64,000 bases of DNA, from positions 604,264-668,263 of the forward strand of contig CBDCUI010000009.1 in assembly GCA_965222615.1 (NCBI GenBank), given 5' to 3'. The notes beneath the pieces are model-generated. The model did no database searches and was not told where the DNA came from. It worked only from the letters and a program-made list of their open reading frames with translations. This DNA is from Gammaproteobacteria bacterium (GTDB lineage: Bacteria > Pseudomonadota > Gammaproteobacteria > UBA4575). Of this stretch, positions 2,503 to 60,456 are shown piece after piece. Within the stretch, counting starts at the first letter, position 1. Each line of letters starts with the position of its first letter. A program made the translations under genes and the position numbers.

Positions 2503-4590
2503 ATGAGTAATTTAGATACCTACAGAAATATTGGCATTTTTGCGCACGTGGATGCAGGCAAAACAACTACCACTGAACGCATCCTCAGCCTCACTGGCAA
2601 AATTCACAAAATTGGTGAAGTACACGATGGCGAAGCCACAACCGACTTTATGGATCAAGAACGTGAACGCGGGATTACAATTCAGTCTGCAGCGACTAGT
2701 GCAGTTTGGAATGATCACCGTCTCAACATCATCGATACCCCTGGGCACGTAGACTTTACTATCGAGGTATACCGCTCCTTAAAAGTTCTGGATGGCGGGG
2801 TTGGAGTATTTTGTGGTTCAGGTGGAGTAGAGCCTCAGTCAGAAACCAATTGGCGCTATGCCAATGATTCCAAAGTCGCTCGCATTATTTTTGTTAATAA
2901 ATTAGATCGACTCGGTGCTGATTTTTATCGTGTTGTAGGCCAAATCAAAGATGTATTAGGGGCCAAGCCCTTAGTCATGACTCTTCCAATTGGAACAGAA
3001 GATAACTTCACAGGTGTTGTGGATCTACTGACTCGCAAGGCATGGATATGGGACGGCTCAGATGATCCCATGAAGTACAAGATCGAAGATGTGCCGGCAA
3101 ACATGGTCGACAAAGTCGAACAGTACCGGGAAGAGCTGGTTGAAATGGCACTCGAGCATGATGATGATGCCATGGAAAAATATTTGGATGGCGAAGAACC
3201 TGATATTGATACGCTTAAAGCCTGTATACGCAAAGGCACTATAGCCCTAGACTTTTTCCCAACCTATTGTGGTTCGGCATTTAAGAATAAAGGCATTCAA
3301 TTGGTATTAGATGCCGTCGTGGAATTCTTACCAGATCCAACTGAAGTGGATCCACAGCCTGAAGTGGATTTAGAAGGCAATGAAACAGGCAACTTTGCTG
3401 AAGTGGACCCAAACAAACCGATGCGCGCCTTGGCTTTTAAAATAATGGACGACCGTTATGGCGCTCTTACTTTTATACGTATTTATTCGGGCAAAATTGA
3501 AAAAGGCATGACTGTACTAAATACCTTCACGGGAAAAACCGAACGCATTGGTCGAATTGTAGAAATGCATGCAGATTCACGTGAGGAACTCAATTCCGCA
3601 CAGGCAGGTGATATTGTTGCTGTGCTTGGTATGAAAAATGTGCAAACTGGCCATACCTTATGTGATCAGAACTCACCCGCAACATTAGAACCCATGGTAT
3701 TCCCCGATCCAGTAATCTCCATGGCGGTATCACCTAAAGACAAAGGTGCTTCAGAAAAGATGGGGATAGCCTTAAGCAAAATGGTTGCAGAAGATCCTTC
3801 TTTTCATGTTGCGACCGATGAAGACAGCGGTGAAACTATTCTTAAAGGCATGGGCGAACTGCACTTAGATATCAAAATCGATATTCTAAAACGCACACAT
3901 AATGTAGAAGTAATTGCAGGGGCACCTCAAGTCGCATACCGTGAAACCATCACGCAACGTATCGAAGACAGTTACACACATAAGAAACAATCTGGTGGTG
4001 CAGGACAATTCGGAAAAATTGACTATGTGCTTGAGCCTGGAGAAGTGGGCAGTGGTTATCAATTTGAATCTAAAGTTACAGGCGGTAATGTACCGCGCGA
4101 ATATTGGCCAGCTATCGAAAAAGGCTTTGGCAATATGATGGAAGTCGGTGTCCTGGCGGGCTACCCCTGTCTTGATGTTAAAGTTACTTTAATGGATGGA
4201 GCGTTTCATGCAGTGGACTCCTCAGCGATTGCATTTGAACTTGCTTCCAAAGCGGCTTATCGGCAATCCATGCCCAAAGCAGCCCCACAAATTCTAGAAC
4301 CTATTATGAAAGTGGATGTATTTACTCCGGAAGATCATGTCGGTGATGTGATCGGTGACCTCAATCGACGCCGTGGCATGATCAAATCCCAGGATGCCGG
4401 TACAACTGGCACGCGAGTAAAAGCGGATGTGCCTTTAGCCGAAATGTTTGGTTATATTGGTGACCTGCGCACGATGACTTCAGGACGCGGACAGTTTTCT
4501 ATGGAATTTTCACATTATCTACCCTGCCCTAAAAATGTAGCTGATGAAGTAATCAAAGAAGCAAAAGAGCGCGCAGAAGCGAAATCATAA
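2503..4590 (+). CDS. fusA: Elongation factor G, a stand-alone paralog
   Basis: N-terminus [31 protein letters not shown], and the full five-domain length (695 aa). There is no rpsL/rpsG/tuf context, so this is probably a second EF-G copy. Confidence 0.9.
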
Positions 4591-32513: not shown

Positions 32514-32620
32514 CCTGTGCCAGCGATCCCTTTGCACCCGAAGTATACTGTTACCGTTGCTCCCTTCCGGGCCTGGCGGGGTTCACAGCATTTCGTCGCA
32601 AGGGTACTGACACAGACCGC
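32514..32620 (-). ncRNA. ffs: Signal recognition particle RNA (4.5S RNA, ffs)
   Basis: Minus-strand sequence contains the domain IV core CCAGGCCCGGAAGGGAGCAACGG, close to the E. coli GGUCAGGUCCGGAAGGAAGCAGC. Terminal helix GUCUGUGUCAG pairs with CUGGCACAG. About 107 nt, immediately upstream of dnaX, which is the conserved position. Confidence 0.7.
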
Positions 32621-49660: not shown

Positions 49661-50443
49661 ATGTCCAACAAATTACAGAATACTAAAACTGATGTTCTAC
49701 AGTTTGTTCATATCACAGATACTCATCTGCTGAATCAAGCAAATGAAACTTTTCATGGTTTAAATACAAAAAAAAATTTAGAGGCGGTTTTAAACCATTG
49801 TCAAATACGCTATCCAAACATAGATTTTTTGCTGTTTACGGGTGATATTTCTCAAACAGGCGATGAGGCAAGTTATACAATCTTCAACTCAATAATACGC
49901 CAATATAAAATCCCCATTTACTGTATTCCAGGCAATCACGACATCCCAAAATTTTTACAGCATATTATTCCAAGTTGTCCAAAGGAGACAATTAGAACGA
50001 TTCAATTCGGTAAGTTTTCACTAATTTTATTAAACAGCTGGGTAGAAAACCAACACCACGGAATGATCTCTCAACATTGTCTGTTGGAATTAAAAAGTTT
50101 CCTGCAAAAAAATAGTGGACAATTTAATATTATAGCGATTCATCACCCGCCCATAATAATTAACAGTAAGTGGCTTGATGAAATTGGCTTACAGAATAAA
50201 GCGGATTTTTTACAAGTCATTCATAAATATGCGCCAAATTCATTACTGATATTTGGACATATTCATCAAGAAATCGACCAGCAGCAAGACTCACTGCGTT
50301 TCCTTTCTACACCATCTACCTGTCATCAATACAAAGCGAATTCTGAGTGCATGCAGTGTATTTTCACACCACCGCCTACATATCGATTTATAAAGCTAAA
50401 CCCAACACATCATATTGAAACAAATCTTCATTATATTGAATAA
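49661..50443 (+). CDS. cpdA: 3',5'-cyclic-nucleotide phosphodiesterase (CpdA/Icc), class III metallophosphoesterase
   Basis: Aligns along its length with E. coli CpdA: FVHITDTHL, GDISQTGD, GNHD, IAIHHPP, GHIHQE, STPSTC. Confidence 0.8.
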   Translation: MSNKLQNTKTDVLQFVHITDTHLLNQANETFHGLNTKKNLEAVLNHCQIRYPNIDFLLFTGDISQTGDEASYTIFNSIIRQYKIPIYCIPGNHDIPKFLQHIIPSCPKETIRTIQFGKFSLILLNSWVENQHHGMISQHCLLELKSFLQKNSGQFNIIAIHHPPIIINSKWLDEIGLQNKADFLQVIHKYAPNSLLIFGHIHQEIDQQQDSLRFLSTPSTCHQYKANSECMQCIFTPPPTYRFIKLNPTHHIETNLHYIE

Positions 50444-55914: not shown

Positions 55915-56980
55915 GGTTTTCGAGATCTTATTTTAGCAGGAGGGATTCATGTCCTACGTACATGTTAGCGCAAAAGAACGTCATACATTAATGTATTTGT
56001 TGCATCTTCGTTTCAGTTATCGAGAGATTGGACGTCGATTAGGCCGTCATCACAGCACCATCTCAAGAGAAGTCAAACGTAATGGTCGCAGGTCTGGTTG
56101 GAGTTATTGGGATGAATACGCGCAGTGCCAAGCGCAACAGCGTAAACGTCAGCCTCGTCATCGGAGAAGACGAGATCATCAAACACTCTATAACAAGGTC
56201 ATCGCGTACTTACGCCAAGGCTGGTCCCCGGATGCCATCAGTGGCTGGTTGCGCAGACATTACAAGAAGCGTTCTCGCGTACAGGTCTGCACAGAAACGA
56301 TTTATCAGTGGATCTATTGTGATGCCCAAACAGGCGGCACGTTATATCACTATTTAGCCTCGCAGCATAAGAAGCGCAAACGACAGCCTTTGAATAGGCT
56401 CAAAACGATCGGCATTTCACATCGAGTAGGGATTGAACATCGTCCTGATCATATTGAAAAAAGACAACGACTAGGCCATTGGGAAGGCGATACGGTGGAA
56501 GGGGCCAAAGGCTGTGGCGGTGTGGTGACCTTAGTCGAACGTAAAAGCCGGTTTCTTCTTGCAGGTTTGCTTAAAGACAAACAAGCCCTCACCTTTAGTC
56601 AAGTTTCACAACAAGCACTTAAAAACATTCCAAGTACACTATGCAAAACATTGACCTTGGACAATGGGAAAGAAAATGTCCTGCATCAACAAATCAGCCA
56701 ATCAAAAAAGATGAAGATCTATTTCACCGATCCGTATTCACCTTGGCAACGCGGTACCAATGAACAAACCAATGGTTTATTGAGAAGAACCTTTCCTAAA
56801 GGAACTGATTTTCGTAAAGTATCTAAACAACAACTTAAAAAAGCCGTTAAACGCATTAATCAACGACCTCGTAAAATACTCAACTACTTAACACCTGAGG
56901 AAGTTTTTATGAATGCCGTGAATGGTGCACTTTGAATTGGAACTCGCCAAATAACTATTTGACTAGATAGCAAAATAAAA
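55915..56980 (+). mobile_element. IS30-family insertion sequence (approximate ends)
   Basis: Single transposase ORF. Weak terminal inverted-repeat candidates GATCTTATTTTAGCAGG and GCAAAATAAAACT. Confidence 0.5.
55949..56935 (+). CDS. IS30-family transposase
   Basis: N-terminal HTH (SYREIGRRLGRHHSTISREVKRN) and DDE region (HWEGDTV ... D ... E). Confidence 0.85.
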   Translation: MSYVHVSAKERHTLMYLLHLRFSYREIGRRLGRHHSTISREVKRNGRRSGWSYWDEYAQCQAQQRKRQPRHRRRRDHQTLYNKVIAYLRQGWSPDAISGWLRRHYKKRSRVQVCTETIYQWIYCDAQTGGTLYHYLASQHKKRKRQPLNRLKTIGISHRVGIEHRPDHIEKRQRLGHWEGDTVEGAKGCGGVVTLVERKSRFLLAGLLKDKQALTFSQVSQQALKNIPSTLCKTLTLDNGKENVLHQQISQSKKMKIYFTDPYSPWQRGTNEQTNGLLRRTFPKGTDFRKVSKQQLKKAVKRINQRPRKILNYLTPEEVFMNAVNGAL

Positions 56981-57021: not shown

Positions 57022-57465
57022 TTATATAAATGTCTGCAAACACTTAGCTACCCCCTTGAATTTGCCATTTTCAAACTGATGCCACTTACAACGAATATGA
57101 TTATATTTCCAGCGCGATACATACTTTATATCATCACCCCAACCAGGTTCTTTCCAATATTTCCCATCTATAAAACCAAATTTATTATCACCCGTTCCAT
57201 CAATATATTGGCATTCCCAGTTTTTTTTGTTGAGTATTGTACAATCCTCATACTCATCTACCAAACTAGCTACTTCACTGATAACTTTGTTCTTACCTAC
57301 TCTGAAAGTTACTCGCATCACTGGACGCCATTCGCTTACATCGTTTTGTTCAGGCACAGGTTTTACAACAACATATGCATATATAATCTGGCCATCATCA
57401 CAGCTAGTAATACCAGCAAATGTTAATAAGGTTATTAAAAAGATGCGTATGTTCATTTCTACCAA
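57022..57465 (-). CDS. Hypothetical lipoprotein
   Basis: Lipobox LTFAGITSC. No other motifs. AT-rich. Confidence 0.4.
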   Translation of the reverse strand: MVEMNIRIFLITLLTFAGITSCDDGQIIYAYVVVKPVPEQNDVSEWRPVMRVTFRVGKNKVISEVASLVDEYEDCTILNKKNWECQYIDGTGDNKFGFIDGKYWKEPGWGDDIKYVSRWKYNHIRCKWHQFENGKFKGVAKCLQTFI

Positions 57466-57522
57466 CTATTAGTAAATATGTAGTTTTTTATTTTATCACT
57501 AAATCATTAGCTCGCAGGATGG

Positions 57523-57936
57523 TTGAAAATGTCTTCAAATAACAACTCTGATTTTATTCTTTTATCCACGCTAATTAATAAACTAAAAGATAATAACTAT
57601 TATCGTACATTTGCTAAATCATTACTACGAGCAAACATCGAAGAACATAATTTACCATCTGATAATGAGCTTGTCGCAGAGATGTTTCGTTATTTTATCA
57701 AGGAAAATGAGCTATATATGTTTCACAATAGTTCAAAAGTATCTGCAGATTATATTGAGTCCGAAGCAAACCGAAGAATTTTAGAGAAAACTAAAGAAAA
57801 AAAAGATATAGAACTTATGAAGGAATTAGAACAAAAATTAATTTGGGAGAAAGAAATTTACATAAACATAAAAGATTTAAAGAAATTATATGCGAATAAA
57901 TGTATCGTGTTTCCGAAGTCATTGTTAAATGGCTAA
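57523..57936 (+). CDS. Hypothetical protein
   Basis: ORF in AT-rich accessory DNA. Lys/Glu-rich. Confidence 0.3.
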   Translation: MKMSSNNNSDFILLSTLINKLKDNNYYRTFAKSLLRANIEEHNLPSDNELVAEMFRYFIKENELYMFHNSSKVSADYIESEANRRILEKTKEKKDIELMKELEQKLIWEKEIYINIKDLKKLYANKCIVFPKSLLNG

Positions 57937-58325
57937 CCTTTAGCTTCAAAATCATCTTCTCTAAGTTTTGCTGTCCCATCTTCTTGCAATATCCAGAGCT
58001 CTTTATAAATAACACCACTGGCCTTATTCATTTTCCAATTTGAAGTTAATATCGCACTTTTGTCATCAACTACTTCAATTTTTGGACCCACATATTCAAC
58101 ATCTGAAAATCCCTGGTCTATGAGATTTTGCCAAAATCCTTGAATCTCCACTGTTCCTGTAAACGTACCAAATGGCCTAGCGTTCATTACTGCATCTTCT
58201 TCATATTGGGATACACAACCCACCGCATCACCTGAATTAAAGGACTTTTTCCATAATTCGCTTGCTGTGTTAATTGCATTCAAAACCATAGCTTTTTGCT
58301 CATCAGTAACCATATGCTTTCTCAC
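57933..58325 (-). CDS. NTF2-like/SnoaL-like small protein
   Basis: 130 aa, alpha+beta cone pattern. Assigned by fold-level resemblance only. Confidence 0.4.
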   Translation of the reverse strand: MRKHMVTDEQKAMVLNAINTASELWKKSFNSGDAVGCVSQYEEDAVMNARPFGTFTGTVEIQGFWQNLIDQGFSDVEYVGPKIEVVDDKSAILTSNWKMNKASGVIYKELWILQEDGTAKLREDDFEAKG

Positions 58326-58340
58326 TTCATAAGTTAAATT

Positions 58341-58409
58341 GCCCGCAAATTAATTACCGCGAAGCGATTCCTTAGGGTTCGGCTCCACTTTTCACGTTCA
58401 ATTACTCAA
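58341..58409. repeat. Composite short repeat (R1 58341-58371 plus R2 58372-58409)
   Basis: R1 GCCCGCAAATTAATTACCGCGAAGCGATTCC recurs at 59932-59962. R2 TTAGGGTTCGGCTCCACTTTTCACGTTCAATTACTCAA recurs at 59432-59470. Each copy has only a few mismatches. Confidence 0.65.
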
Positions 58410-59238
58410 ATAATTTAAACCGTACCCAAGTTAGATCAACTTTATCAAAATCTAAGTTAGGAACTACACTCAAATTTAAATCAGTAAATAATTCATGTTT
58501 TGTTATTTTATTAATGCTTTGGTCAAATGATAACAACTTGTTAATCGAAACTGCTAATTGTGTGTGGTGTGCTACTAAAGCAACCATATTACGCGTCAAA
58601 ACAGGTTGATTATCTATATCTATTCTTAAAGTTCCACCTTTATGTTTAATTAGCCGCAGATGCAATAGTTGATGAAATTCTTGACAGTTATCAGATATAT
58701 TTTTAACAATATTTTTCCACTCATTACTACTTAAATATGGATCTTCAAACTTCTCAAAATTAACTTTTGCAGTAATAAAAAAATTTTCTATTTCATCAAC
58801 TAATTTTTTAGAAATATCATATGACCCATTTTTTGAATCTGGAAAAAGTTTAGAATGAAGTTCACGTACATTATCAAAATGCAAATGACTATTTTCAATA
58901 TTTATCATAGAACTAACATAGTCTTCAAATTCTTCAACATGCCTATAATAATTAGAAAATATATTTTGACTTTTTGATTCATGAATCTGTGCTTTTGTTT
59001 GCTCTGACCGATGATTTGATGCTAGTAGTGCAATTGTTGGAATTAATAATGCTAAAATACCAAGAGGTAATTTGTAATATGAAAATAGATTATTGAAACA
59101 TTCAACTTCGGGACAAAATCTAAATTCATTCAAAAGTAATATTGCAATCGCAGATATCAGTGCAAATAATAGTATTATCCATACAACATATTTGAAAACT
59201 GCAAGTTCAAATAAACTTTTATTCGGATCGAACATCAT
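58402..59238 (-). CDS. Hypothetical membrane-anchored protein
   Basis: Two N-terminal TM helices, then an Asn/Lys-rich soluble domain. AT-rich. Confidence 0.35.
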   Translation of the reverse strand: MMFDPNKSLFELAVFKYVVWIILLFALISAIAILLLNEFRFCPEVECFNNLFSYYKLPLGILALLIPTIALLASNHRSEQTKAQIHESKSQNIFSNYYRHVEEFEDYVSSMINIENSHLHFDNVRELHSKLFPDSKNGSYDISKKLVDEIENFFITAKVNFEKFEDPYLSSNEWKNIVKNISDNCQEFHQLLHLRLIKHKGGTLRIDIDNQPVLTRNMVALVAHHTQLAVSINKLLSFDQSINKITKHELFTDLNLSVVPNLDFDKVDLTWVRFKLFE

Positions 59239-59316
59239 ATGTTTATTATTATTAAACTTTGCTAGTCATATTAGCCAGATTTTCTGTTCCCCAATAGCAA
59301 TAGAATCATAGGCCTA

Positions 59317-59665
59317 TGGTGGAAAGAGGGATTACAAAATACTTCCTTGTATTTTGCCCTTCGGGCCGGTGTCGCTACGCTCCCCCGTTCAAATTTGTTC
59401 CAGACAAATTTGTCGACCCTCTCCTCGGGTTCGACTCCACTTTTCACCTTCAATTATCAAAGACGGGATAAATACCGTCTTTGATAATTGTGGCGGAGAG
59501 AGAGGGATTACAAAATACTTCCTGTATTTTGCCCTTCGGGCCATCGCCTACGGCGATGTTCAAAATCGTTCCTGACGATTTTGTCGAACCTTATTATTTA
59601 TTCCGAGGGTTCGAACACAATCATCAATAATTATTTGGGGGAGCGTAGCTCCCCCAAATAATTAT
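59317..59665. repeat. Two tandem ~180-bp structured units, each beginning with a copy of the tRNA-Ser 3' end
   Basis: TGGTGGAAAGAGGGATT (59317) and TGGCGGAGAGAGAGGGATT (59501) copy the tRNA 3' end found at 59666. Each is followed by the hairpin ACAAAATAC-TTCC(T)T-GTATTTTG and a second hairpin with compensatory changes (CAAATTTG/CAAATTTG versus AAAATCGT/ACGATTTT). Confidence 0.6.
59633..59659 (-). terminator. Hairpin terminator downstream of tRNA-Ser (ATTTGGGGGA-GCGTAGC-TCCCCCAAAT)
   Basis: Perfect 10-bp stem followed, on the minus strand, by an A/T-rich tract. Confidence 0.5.
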
Positions 59666-59757
59666 TGGCGGAGAGAGAGGGATTCGAACCCTCGGTGCCC
59701 CGTTGAGGACACACTCACTTTCCAGGCGAGCCCGTTCGACCACTCCGGCATCTCTCC
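59666..59757 (-). tRNA. tRNA-Ser (anticodon GGA)
   Basis: Minus strand: GGAGAGATGCCGGAGTGGTCGAACGG ... CCTGGAAAG ... long variable arm ... GAGGGTTCGAATCCCTCTCTCTCCGCCA. The sequence folds as a cloverleaf with a class II variable arm and an encoded CCA. Confidence 0.85.
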
Positions 59758-59853
59758 AAATAAAAACATTTACTACGAGCACTTATAATAGATTAAGTGC
59801 TTAAAATTGTAGTACTCAGCACCTTTTAAGTTTACCTAACTTTAATCTGTTTG

Positions 59854-59887
59854 CATCGTCCCTGATGCAACTCTTACTCACACATCC
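59854..59887. repeat. 34-nt repeat copy B, flanked by a 13-nt fragment of the tRNA-Ser 5' end (59900-59912)
   Basis: CATCGTCCCTGATGCAACTCTTACTCACACATCC matches 27386-27419 at 31 of 34 positions. CCGGCATCTCTCC exactly matches the tRNA 5' end. Confidence 0.7.
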
Positions 59888-60117
59888 ATGTGTTCGCTAC
59901 CGGCATCTCTCCACACTTGTGAGCGGGTATTGCTCGCAAATTAATTATCGCGTAGCGATTCAATACTCTATCTTATGCAAATTAAGTATATCGCAGCTAC
60001 TCCACTTTAATAATAGTTATTGGAGGATTGCAAAACATTCCCACGAAAATTACTCAACAGTCGTGCACATCATCCATGATGCGATCTTTCTCGTGAATCC
60101 ATTCACTTGTAATTGAG

Positions 60118-60456
60118 TCAGGAACTTTTGCCTTTGTCGTTGCTTGGATTATATATAGAAGATGGGAAATGAGCGACATTTTCACCGGCGTCAGATATTT
60201 TTGCGACACCTTGCTTGTCGACTTCATCAATTCGAATAATGGCATGCATCGGAACAAAAAAACGTTTAACCTGATCAAATTCAGACTTGAGCTTTTCTTC
60301 ACTAGGATCAACTACAACACTAGTCCGTTCGTCAAATGTCAGACCTTCTATGGTAATGAAACCATACAAATCTGATTGATACACTTGCTGTGCGTAAATC
60401 TCAAAAACTTTGTTTTGATTATAAAAACTTATTTTATAGATCGTCTTTTTTGGCAT
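60118..60456 (-). CDS. Hypothetical protein
   Basis: 112-aa ORF. No motif. Confidence 0.3.
   Translation of the reverse strand: MPKKTIYKISFYNQNKVFEIYAQQVYQSDLYGFITIEGLTFDERTSVVVDPSEEKLKSEFDQVKRFFVPMHAIIRIDEVDKQGVAKISDAGENVAHFPSSIYNPSNDKGKSS

Follow-up and report, generated by a model that had tools for sequence, protein, structure and literature searches.

A probable array of tRNA-linked repeats downstream of a tRNA-Ser(GGA) gene in a gammaproteobacterial genome

A tRNA-Ser(GGA) gene followed by tandem structured repeats was analyzed in a stretch of 64,000 nucleotides from a gammaproteobacterial assembly (GCA_965222615.1, contig CBDCUI010000009.1; the source is apparently an uncultured organism, with a GC content of about 39%), indicated in the following as the window. 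With a probability that we estimate at roughly 85%, the locus is composed of the tRNA gene and an array of tRNA-linked repeats (TLRs), made of two complete units and the relic of a third one, and belongs to the same RNA family as the RtT repeats and the RrA, RrB and RrF RNAs. The family is a known one: the repeats are neither a new kind of element nor a set of integration scars. An earlier note, made from the sequence alone, had considered both possibilities. Its proposal of a family of structured, RNA-like repeats with a selected secondary structure is supported, as the compensatory changes extend to more than 200 related copies, but its claim of novelty is not, since the TLR family has been known since 1978.

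TLRs were first described as a class by Egan and Landy 1978 (PMC8144298), while the name tRNA-linked repeats is used by Stenum et al. 2021 (PMC8144298); they are defined by an identity of 18–19 bp between their 3' end and the 3' end of the upstream tRNA or rRNA (PMC8144298). In E. coli K-12, 22 copies at ten loci were reported by Rudd (1999) (PMC8144298), and the RtT repeats of the tyrT-tyrV locus are the subject of Egan & Landy 1978, Rudd 1999 and Bosl & Kersten 1991 (cited in PMC8144298). The units of the window are located directly downstream of tRNA-Ser(GGA), on the same strand. The 3' end of the unit closest to the tRNA, named unit 2, is identical to that of the tRNA (19/19), while that of the following one, unit 1, is degenerate (68%). 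Homology to established TLRs is found both with a covariance model, named R1, and by alignment to the Rfam RtT model.

The tRNA-Ser(GGA) gene is placed by both ARAGORN and the Rfam tRNA model (55.9 bits) at 59666–59757 of the minus strand, in agreement with the earlier note, and is the single tRNA of the 64-kb window; all the features of the array lie on the same strand. Directly after the CCA of the tRNA comes an inverted repeat, hairpin A (59625–59667), with a perfect 20-bp stem and a 3-nt loop (fold energy -30.3 kcal/mol, z = -9.5); it was not called by the terminator scan. The corresponding position is occupied by terminator T1 in rrnB and, in Idiomarina, by the terminator that follows the tRNA. 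Unit 2 (59491–59631) is supported by model R1 (105 bits), by the Rfam RtT model (28.6 bits) and by the exact 19-nt copy of the tRNA 3' end at 59491–59509. It is composed of an antisense T-arm segment, UUCGAACCCUCGG, helix P2, and hairpins H1 (CAAAAUCGU-CAGGA-ACGAUUUUG), H2 (AUCGCC-GUA-GGCGAU), H3 (CCC-GAA-GGG) and H4 (CAAAAUAC-AGGAA-GUAUUUUG), followed by UAAUCC and by the tRNA 3' end. A second inverted repeat, hairpin B (59451–59490; 16-bp stem, -21.6 kcal/mol, z = -8.3), is found between units 2 and 1, in the position of T2 in rrnB. In Idiomarina, canonical U-run terminators occupy the positions of hairpins A and B, and are duplicated together with the unit.

Unit 1 (59317–59450) is a diverged paralogue of unit 2, recognized by model R1 (94 bits) and by its minimum free energy (MFE) fold. 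It features an H1 of sequence CAAAUUUGU-CUGGA-ACAAAUUUG, an H2 of the GGAGCG-UAGCGAC type and an H4 with loop ACAAGGAAGU; its degenerate 3' end, CCCUCUUUCCACCA, pairs with its own 5' arm, GGUGAAAAG, with 8 out of 9 pairs formed. Each unit is a structured RNA of about 130–140 nt, with a strong hairpin before it.

The 19-nt tRNA 3' end (TGGCGGAGAGAGAGGGATT on the plus strand) has two exact occurrences, at 59491–59509 and 59666–59684, where 0.02 are expected, and an exact 20-mer, with none expected, is common to the two units (59348–59367 and 59523–59542). The repeats are spaced by about 175 bp. Identity between the two units is 71%, a level that unit 1 also shows (70%) with a Gln-linked unit of an unrelated metagenome-assembled genome (MAG): the units are old paralogues, rather than recent duplicates. 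Tandem Repeats Finder reports no array here, because the units are too diverged. All the features pointed out in the earlier note exceed by far what chance would give. The two tandem units are present, but the copy of the tRNA 3' end, there taken as the start of each unit, is its end on the strand of the tRNA. The two hairpins assigned to each unit, one conserved and one with compensatory changes in the stem, were found in both. Their loops, read as UUCCNGA and compared to an anticodon loop, had been taken from the wrong strand: the transcribed strand carries UCAGGAA and UCUGGAA. These are loops of the CNGGA and CAGGAAG type, as in RrB, and are therefore not anticodon-like.

Model R1 (not to be confused with the repeat of the same name, described below) was built from alignment A3, containing 19 units of the window subtype. 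It finds exactly two units in the window, with scores (105 and 94 bits) that are not independent, because both units are part of the training alignment. The same model scores the four E. coli RtT copies at 58–62 bits, matches E. coli rrB over its full length (73.9 bits, E = 3e-22), and detects 128 units in the genome loci, the four RtT copies included. Given the full-length match to rrB, and since the GGA loops of the window lie in the same helices as those of rrB, the window units belong to an RrB-like, GGA-loop TLR subtype, here located on a tRNA.

Conversely, the Rfam RtT model (RF00391) aligns to unit 2 over positions 1–130 of 130, with E = 0.001–0.005 in a permissive scan, in which unit 1 was not reported. 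At the tyrT-tyrV-rttR locus of E. coli K-12 the four RtT copies score 133–137 bits, and each ends with UAAUCC plus the tRNA-Tyr 3' end; the end of the annotated rttR coincides exactly with the CCA of a copy. The order of the blocks is common to RtT and to the window units: AAGGUUCGA comes first, then two hairpins in succession, (G/A)CCCGAAGGG, one more hairpin, and finally GUAAUCC plus the 3'-terminal sequence of the tRNA upstream. Between the two types, the stems differ by compensatory changes. A further Rfam entry, AaHKsRNA22 (RF02902), aligns to unit 2 over positions 1–101 of 101 (28.5 bits; gathering score 39.8): as the H1–H4 layout is the same, this entry appears to describe a TLR of this subtype. 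Other weak Rfam matches, such as psRNA14 and mir-101, merely reflect hairpin B, and were discarded.

The folding and covariance analysis suggested by the earlier note was carried out on six helices, specified on A3: P1, formed by the 5' arm and the tRNA-like 3' end, P2 (GAACC/GGUUC) and hairpins H1–H4. In the 19 units, 86.8% of the cells are paired. The covariation score is 0.348, versus 0.127 for shuffled alignments, none of which reaches it (0 out of 500), and 0.05–0.09 with slid partners. In H1 pairing reaches 100%, and 8 out of 9 pairs show double changes. For 123 distinct sequences the score is 0.385 versus 0.113; this value leans towards the structure, because the alignment was fitted to the model. 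The six helices are backed by strong covariation across Gammaproteobacteria. When unit 1 is folded alone, P1, P2 and H1–H4 are all present in the MFE structure (-45 kcal/mol, z = -3.4); the fold of unit 2 has z = -2.9. RNAalifold, run on 56 units aligned simply by MAFFT, recovered hardly any structure, owing to hairpin indels: a structure specified by hand on A3, and then model-based alignments, were used instead.

The 5' arm of the units resembles an antisense tRNA T arm, with sequence GGCAGGAUGAGAACC in Gln-linked units, GAGAGAGGGAUUCGAACCC in many Ser-linked ones and, as reported above, UUCGAACCCUCGG in unit 2. It is followed by the 5' half of a sense T stem and T loop (AAGGUUCGA or GAGGGUCGA) and by a hairpin insert of about 65 nt, where three variable hairpins are found along with the CCC-GAA-GGG hairpin. 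UAAUCC and the terminal 19 nt, which correspond to the remainder of the T loop followed by T stem, acceptor strand and CCA, close the unit. From this layout, a unit resembles a tRNA 3' half whose T loop hosts an insertion of about 65 nt. The segment UUCGAACCCUCGG of unit 2 (59603–59615) is a 13-nt perfect complement of the 5' half of the tRNA T arm (59683–59695), and could pair with the tRNA in a common precursor, competing with T-arm folding.

Two further features of the family were observed. In six other genomes, with Yersinia pestis and Kosakonia among them, a TLR body directly continues a tRNA 5' part at GGTTCGA (tRNA-Tyr in L018, L036 and L067; tRNA-Lys in L068, L082 and L114), which indicates recurrent recombination between tRNA genes and TLRs at that motif. 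At the base of H4, non-Watson-Crick G.A/A.G juxtapositions (columns 195/235 and 196/234 of alignment A4) are found in about 110 of the 123 distinct members, and may form a sheared-GA or kink-like motif; A-U pairs are found at the same place in the window units and in L069.

The distribution of the family was evaluated by searching 185,579 species genomes with a pattern of three conserved blocks (AAGGTTCG..CCCGAAGGG..TAATCC), which gave at least 152 matches, at no fewer than 119 loci. Among the matches listed, to which the following counts also refer, most loci are from Enterobacterales; Idiomarina, Thioalkalivibrio, Salinisphaera and Sedimenticola are also present, together with MAGs labelled as Ectothiorhodospiraceae, Granulosicoccaceae, Chromatiales, Aeromonadales and Xanthomonadales. 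A complete tail is found in 123 units, and 102 of these end in 19 nt which all match (19/19) the 3' end of the upstream tRNA on the same strand. The nearest such tRNA is most often tRNA-Tyr (82), followed by Gln(UUG) (22), Lys (9), Gln(CUG) (3) and Ser(GGA) (3), while Ser(CGA), Ser(GCU), Arg and Val are found once each. Besides the window, Ser(GGA) is the partner in two Idiomarina species. Across the family, the 3' end of a unit changes along with the upstream tRNA.

In metagenomes, the Ser-type junction TAATCCCTCTCTCTCCGCCA is found on at least 120 contigs. Among those listed, model R1 detects 93 units, whose median distance from the preceding tRNA-Ser gene is 160 nt; four anticodons are represented. 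These loci have just the tRNA and the unit in common with the window: the flanks differ, and no synteny information can therefore be drawn from them. The genome-wide count that the earlier note had called for thus shows, with both the genome loci and the metagenome contigs, that the units do not occur only here. Enterobacterial-type tyrT-RtT, with an E. coli-type tRNA-Tyr 3' end, was also found in assemblies labelled as Vagococcus sp. (L020), Paenibacillus camelliae (L026, a 426-bp contig) and Pseudomonas lundensis (L022): contamination or mislabelling of these assemblies is likely.

Parts of the array are displaced. The two shorter repeats, R1 and R2, that had been noted at this locus are both real and, within the 64-kb window, are confined to it. 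R2 is found at 58375–58404 (R2a, minus strand) and at 59427–59456, where it corresponds to the 5' arm of unit 1. Solely from this 93% match, R2a, too short for model R1, is taken as the relic of the 5' arm of a third unit, truncated after GAACCC. The two copies of R1 (R1a, 58338–58370, and R1b, 59929–59961, both on the minus strand) are 91% identical, and a weak third R1-like copy is located at 59970–60002. R1a contains a 5-bp terminator-like hairpin, AUCGC-UUC-GCGGU, followed by AAUUAAUUUG. R1b lies between the tRNA and a DUF1820 gene (60118–60456, minus strand), in a region also recognizable in L241, one of the relatives of the window that were found through the adjacent DUF1820 protein. This region is native intergenic sequence upstream of the tRNA, and R1a is therefore its displaced duplicate. 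The hypothesis that repeat R1 is a shortened unit was considered and rejected, on account of this conservation in L241; the repeat is seen instead as native intergenic DNA that was duplicated, small terminator-like hairpin included. Neither R2a-R1a nor the region upstream of the tRNA is detected as a unit by model R1. The copy of the tRNA 5' end upstream of the gene is also real: it is an exact direct repeat of 14 nt, instead of the 13 first noted, with sequence UGGAGAGAUGCCGG (59900–59913, minus strand), and was left over from a partial duplication or a rearrangement in the past.

Between unit 1 and the relic of the third unit, the array is interrupted by an unrelated, AT-rich open reading frame (ORF) of 278 amino acids (58402–59238, minus strand; GC about 31%), lying outside the TLRs. 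It features N-terminal hydrophobic segments and a PADLOC match to 2TM_IV (E = 4.5e-9), while the Pfam scan assigned it to no family. 2TM_IV is a membrane-effector type of defence systems, and the ORF is apparently an orphan within a broken TLR array. Two ORFans (147 amino acids on the minus strand, 137 on the plus strand; 31–32% GC; no Pfam or convincing PADLOC match) are found at 57022–57936, between an IS30 element (55949–56935) and a SnoaL-like gene (57933–58325): this stretch is probably a small acquired islet. Farther away in the window, a bacterial small signal recognition particle RNA (Rfam RF00169, 70.5 bits) is located at 32515–32612 on the minus strand, and a metallophosphoesterase gene (49661–50443, plus strand), matching the PADLOC models PDC-S10 (E = 1e-10) and PDC-S60 for candidate defence systems, lies within a stretch of low GC (32–35%, 48–51 kb). 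As to the DUF1820 gene, it precedes tRNA-Ser(GGA) in the window and in L241 (5001–5645), while in a MAG with 61% GC (L109, about 3265–3850) the order is tRNA-Ser(CGA), TLR, DUF1820.

Several observations weigh against the assignment of the locus to the TLRs, or against a role of its units. The 28.6 bits of unit 2 are below the gathering threshold of the Rfam RtT model (45), and leave it outside RF00391 as curated. The third copy of the tRNA 3' end, that of unit 1 at 59315–59333, is degenerate, being 68% identical with a 2-nt deletion. In unit 2 the closing helix P1 is missing, as the 5' arm and the 3' end do not pair. Hairpins A and B are without canonical U-runs, and inspection of the locus for terminators and promoters revealed no convincing promoter. 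The relative L241, where a flanking protein is 85% identical, carries tRNA-Ser(GGA) without a TLR, and the units are therefore dispensable. The 19 E. coli TLRs in tRNA operons are predicted not to bind CsrA (PMC8144298); a phenotype once ascribed to RtT was retracted, and TLRs in tRNA operons have no established function (PMC8144298). Finally, csrA was not found within the 64-kb window, a result uninformative on the whole genome. Concerning the first of these points, further GGA-loop units (L004, L009, L030, L041, L118 from Idiomarina zobellii, and others) also score below the RtT threshold, which is passed by Lys-, Gln- and Arg-linked units with a short H1. The latter bridge the enteric RtT type and the window type, while the GGA-loop subtype is missed by the Rfam RtT model.

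Some of these observations fit a different explanation, where the TLRs are genuine but decaying and functionless here, as neutral or selfish repeats kept by unequal crossing-over and by gene conversion with the tRNA gene. We consider this improbable, but it is the most serious of the rival explanations, more so than the one based on att scars. Decay would be in agreement with the absence of P1 from unit 2, with the degenerate 3' copy of unit 1 and with a third unit reduced to a 30-nt relic; yet unit 1 has a 5' arm that matches its altered 3' end, and the four internal hairpins are fully paired in both units, despite 29% divergence. The array is interrupted by an unrelated AT-rich ORF, a close relative is without units, and the tRNA::TLR fusions found elsewhere indicate that recombination at GGTTCGA does occur; against this, both units of the window score as well as those of other genomes, and invariant GGA loops are kept in both. 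The decaying state would also be compatible with the lack of a firm phenotype for tRNA-linked TLRs (PMC8144298).

The comparison with related genomes, also proposed in the earlier note, shows a rearranged locus, variable between relatives. The relatives keep the order metallophosphoesterase, DUF1820, but in L244 to L246 no tRNA at all is present after DUF1820, and the genes located downstream differ from those of the window; synteny ends at the tRNA. In the closest relative found, L243 (DUF1820 88% identical), the contig stops 93 nt past DUF1820. The last stretch of this contig (5339–5432) includes CCGGAGTGGTCGAA, similar to the D arm of a tRNA-Ser; a repeat at the same locus probably interrupted the assembly. 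The tRNA without units is seen in L241, while none of these relatives is close enough to define an empty site. The locus is accordingly rearranged and variable, given the relative lacking the units and the end of synteny, but the reading of the units themselves as scars is not supported.

The last point deserves some discussion, as the reading of the units as att scars, where successive integrase insertions and excisions at tRNA-Ser left a core spanning the T loop to CCA plus a stub of the element, was the other one first put forward. It now appears very unlikely. The 19-nt copy does span the T loop to CCA, as the classic att identity block does, but a copy of the 3' end is also the defining feature of TLRs, and the DNA between the copies is made of the conserved TLR body only: the same covarying RNA fold is found after tRNA-Tyr, Gln, Lys, Ser, Arg and 5S rRNA, in hundreds of genomes. 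Synteny with the relatives stops exactly at the tRNA, the units are missing from a relative that has the tRNA, and in the window they adjoin AT-rich ORFans and an IS30 element; in Idiomarina, however, no island accompanies the unit, which is flanked by the tRNA and a core gene. In the Pfam scan of 17 selected ORFs (43.9–62.5 kb) the only recombinase is the IS30 DDE transposase, with no tyrosine, serine or phage-type integrase, and no tyrosine or serine integrase is present among the ORFs scanned at 44–64 kb. The tRNA 5' fragment and the R1 and R2 duplications do testify to past rearrangement, while the units, 71% identical, are old paralogues and not recent scars. Hardly tenable, finally, is the view of the units as tRNA pseudogenes, unusual tRNA-like genes or carriers of a gene for a small basic protein, such as E. 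coli tpr: although each unit contains T-arm-like and acceptor-like sequence and one hairpin with a 7-nt loop, small ORFs (51–73 amino acids) overlap the units and tpr is annotated inside an E. coli RtT repeat, ARAGORN and the Rfam tRNA model find just one tRNA, the transcribed-strand loops UCAGGAA/UCUGGAA have no U33 and no anticodon geometry, and the variation consists of compensatory changes and hairpin indels, which indicate selection at the RNA level and would wreck a reading frame.

Within the TLR assignment, the question arises of what the units may do. GGA is found in the loops of both H1 (CAGGA or CUGGA) and H4 (AGGAA or AAGGAA, within ACAGGAAGU and ACAAGGAAGU, respectively). Units with GGA in both loops are 32 out of 123 and 25 out of 90 distinct ones, and the two loops co-occur. 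Pectobacterium (L028) is an example of a genome with tRNA-linked units of the GGA-loop type. The sequence CAGGA(A/U/C)G is reportedly the repeat consensus of CsrB, as described by Liu et al. in 1997, and the consensus obtained for CsrA by systematic evolution of ligands by exponential enrichment (SELEX) is said to be RUACARGGAUGU, from work by Dubey et al. in 2005; with AUACAAGGAAGUAU, its H4 loop, unit 1 comes near to the latter form.

In E. coli, RrA, rrB and rrF, located between T1 and T2 of rrnA, rrnB and rrnD, are transcribed by read-through of T1, and their ends correspond to RNase E sites (PMC8144298). The three RNAs bind Hfq and CsrA in vitro, and CsrA binding is lost when three GGA motifs are changed (PMC8144298); GGA-dependent physical binding of CsrA refers to E. 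coli RrB-short only (PMC8144298). The E. coli TLRs linked to tRNAs are without GGA loops.

By analogy with E. coli, the promoter of the tRNA would also drive the units of the window, with transcription reading through hairpin A. The resulting RNA would be cut just after each tRNA-like 3' end by the machinery that processes the 3' ends of tRNA and 5S rRNA, namely RNase E and exonucleases, and the cleavage would release stable small RNAs, whose amount would report the transcription of the tRNA operon. On the basis of the homology to RrB and of the motifs, the GGA loops of H1 (CAGGA or CUGGA) and H4 (ACAGGAAGU or ACAAGGAAGU) may bind a CsrA/RsmA dimer, so that the output of the tRNA operon would tune CsrA activity. 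Binding of a dimer by the two loops, with the consequent tuning, is possible, but the odds are against it. The array itself may have grown and decayed by unequal recombination between the repeated copies of the 3' end.

A broader proposal, which we put forward only tentatively and hold to be rather unlikely as a whole, is that GGA-loop TLRs are widespread CsrA/RsmA-titrating small RNAs, located on Ser, Gln, Lys and Tyr tRNA genes throughout the Gammaproteobacteria, and would couple the transcription of stable-RNA operons to the Csr regulon. The 5' arm, antisense to the T arm (13/13 nt in unit 2), might also pair with the precursor tRNA, and affect its processing.

For annotation purposes, arrays of tRNA 3'-end copies are easily taken for att sites or island boundaries, and the recognition of TLRs prevents false island calls. 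The GGA-loop subtype is common, the Ser-type junction alone being found on at least 120 metagenome contigs. Its wide presence on tRNA genes outside E. coli, along with its being missed at the RtT threshold, goes beyond the literature consulted here.

When the locus is compared with known systems, tRNA att sites show the same direct repeat of the tRNA 3' end, from T loop to CCA, downstream of an intact tRNA. The window differs from them in that the scanned ORFs include no integrase, the copies are separated by just about 150 nt of conserved structured RNA, and the arrangement is also seen downstream of 5S rRNA. As in the case of 3'ETS-leuZ, a tRNA precursor would release the units as regulatory RNAs; 3'ETS-leuZ, however, acts by base-pairing, while the units would act by protein binding. 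With CsrB, CsrC and RsmZ the window has in common loops with CAGGA(A/U/C)G, but each unit carries two GGA loops, versus the approximately 9–18 CsrA-binding motifs cited for CsrC and CsrB (PMC8144298). Neither these RNAs nor 3'ETS-leuZ have sequence homology to the window units.

Closer are the members of the family. Aggregatibacter small RNA 22 (AaHKsRNA22) has a consensus H1–H4 layout which is the same as that of unit 2. RtT, from E. coli tyrT-tyrV, similarly consists of tandem units of about 175 bp, placed directly after a tRNA on the same strand and ending in its terminal 19 nt, with the same order of blocks and reciprocal covariance-model matches. The window units are linked to tRNA-Ser(GGA) instead of tRNA-Tyr, and feature a long H1 of 9 bp and GGA-bearing H1 and H4 loops, which are absent from RtT. 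The base of H4 is A-U paired in the window and formed by tandem G.A in most family members; unit 2, moreover, lacks P1 and scores 28.6 bits versus the RtT threshold of 45.

RrB, as found at rrnB (L247), features an H1 of sequence CAAAUCCGC-CGGGA-GCGGAUUUG, an H2 of sequence GUUGC-GAA-GCAAC, an H3 of sequence CCC-GGA-GGG and an H4 loop CAGGAC. In both RrB and the window, a gene is followed by a hairpin, the unit, the 3' copy and another hairpin. RrB follows 5S rRNA, the 3' end of which it carries, while the window units follow a tRNA and contain its 3' end together with T-arm-like segments; CsrA binding is known for RrB, and predicted only, by analogy, for the window units. The fold and the GGA loops that the window subtype has in common with the CsrA-binding RrB lead to a concrete, testable hypothesis for the tRNA-linked copies.

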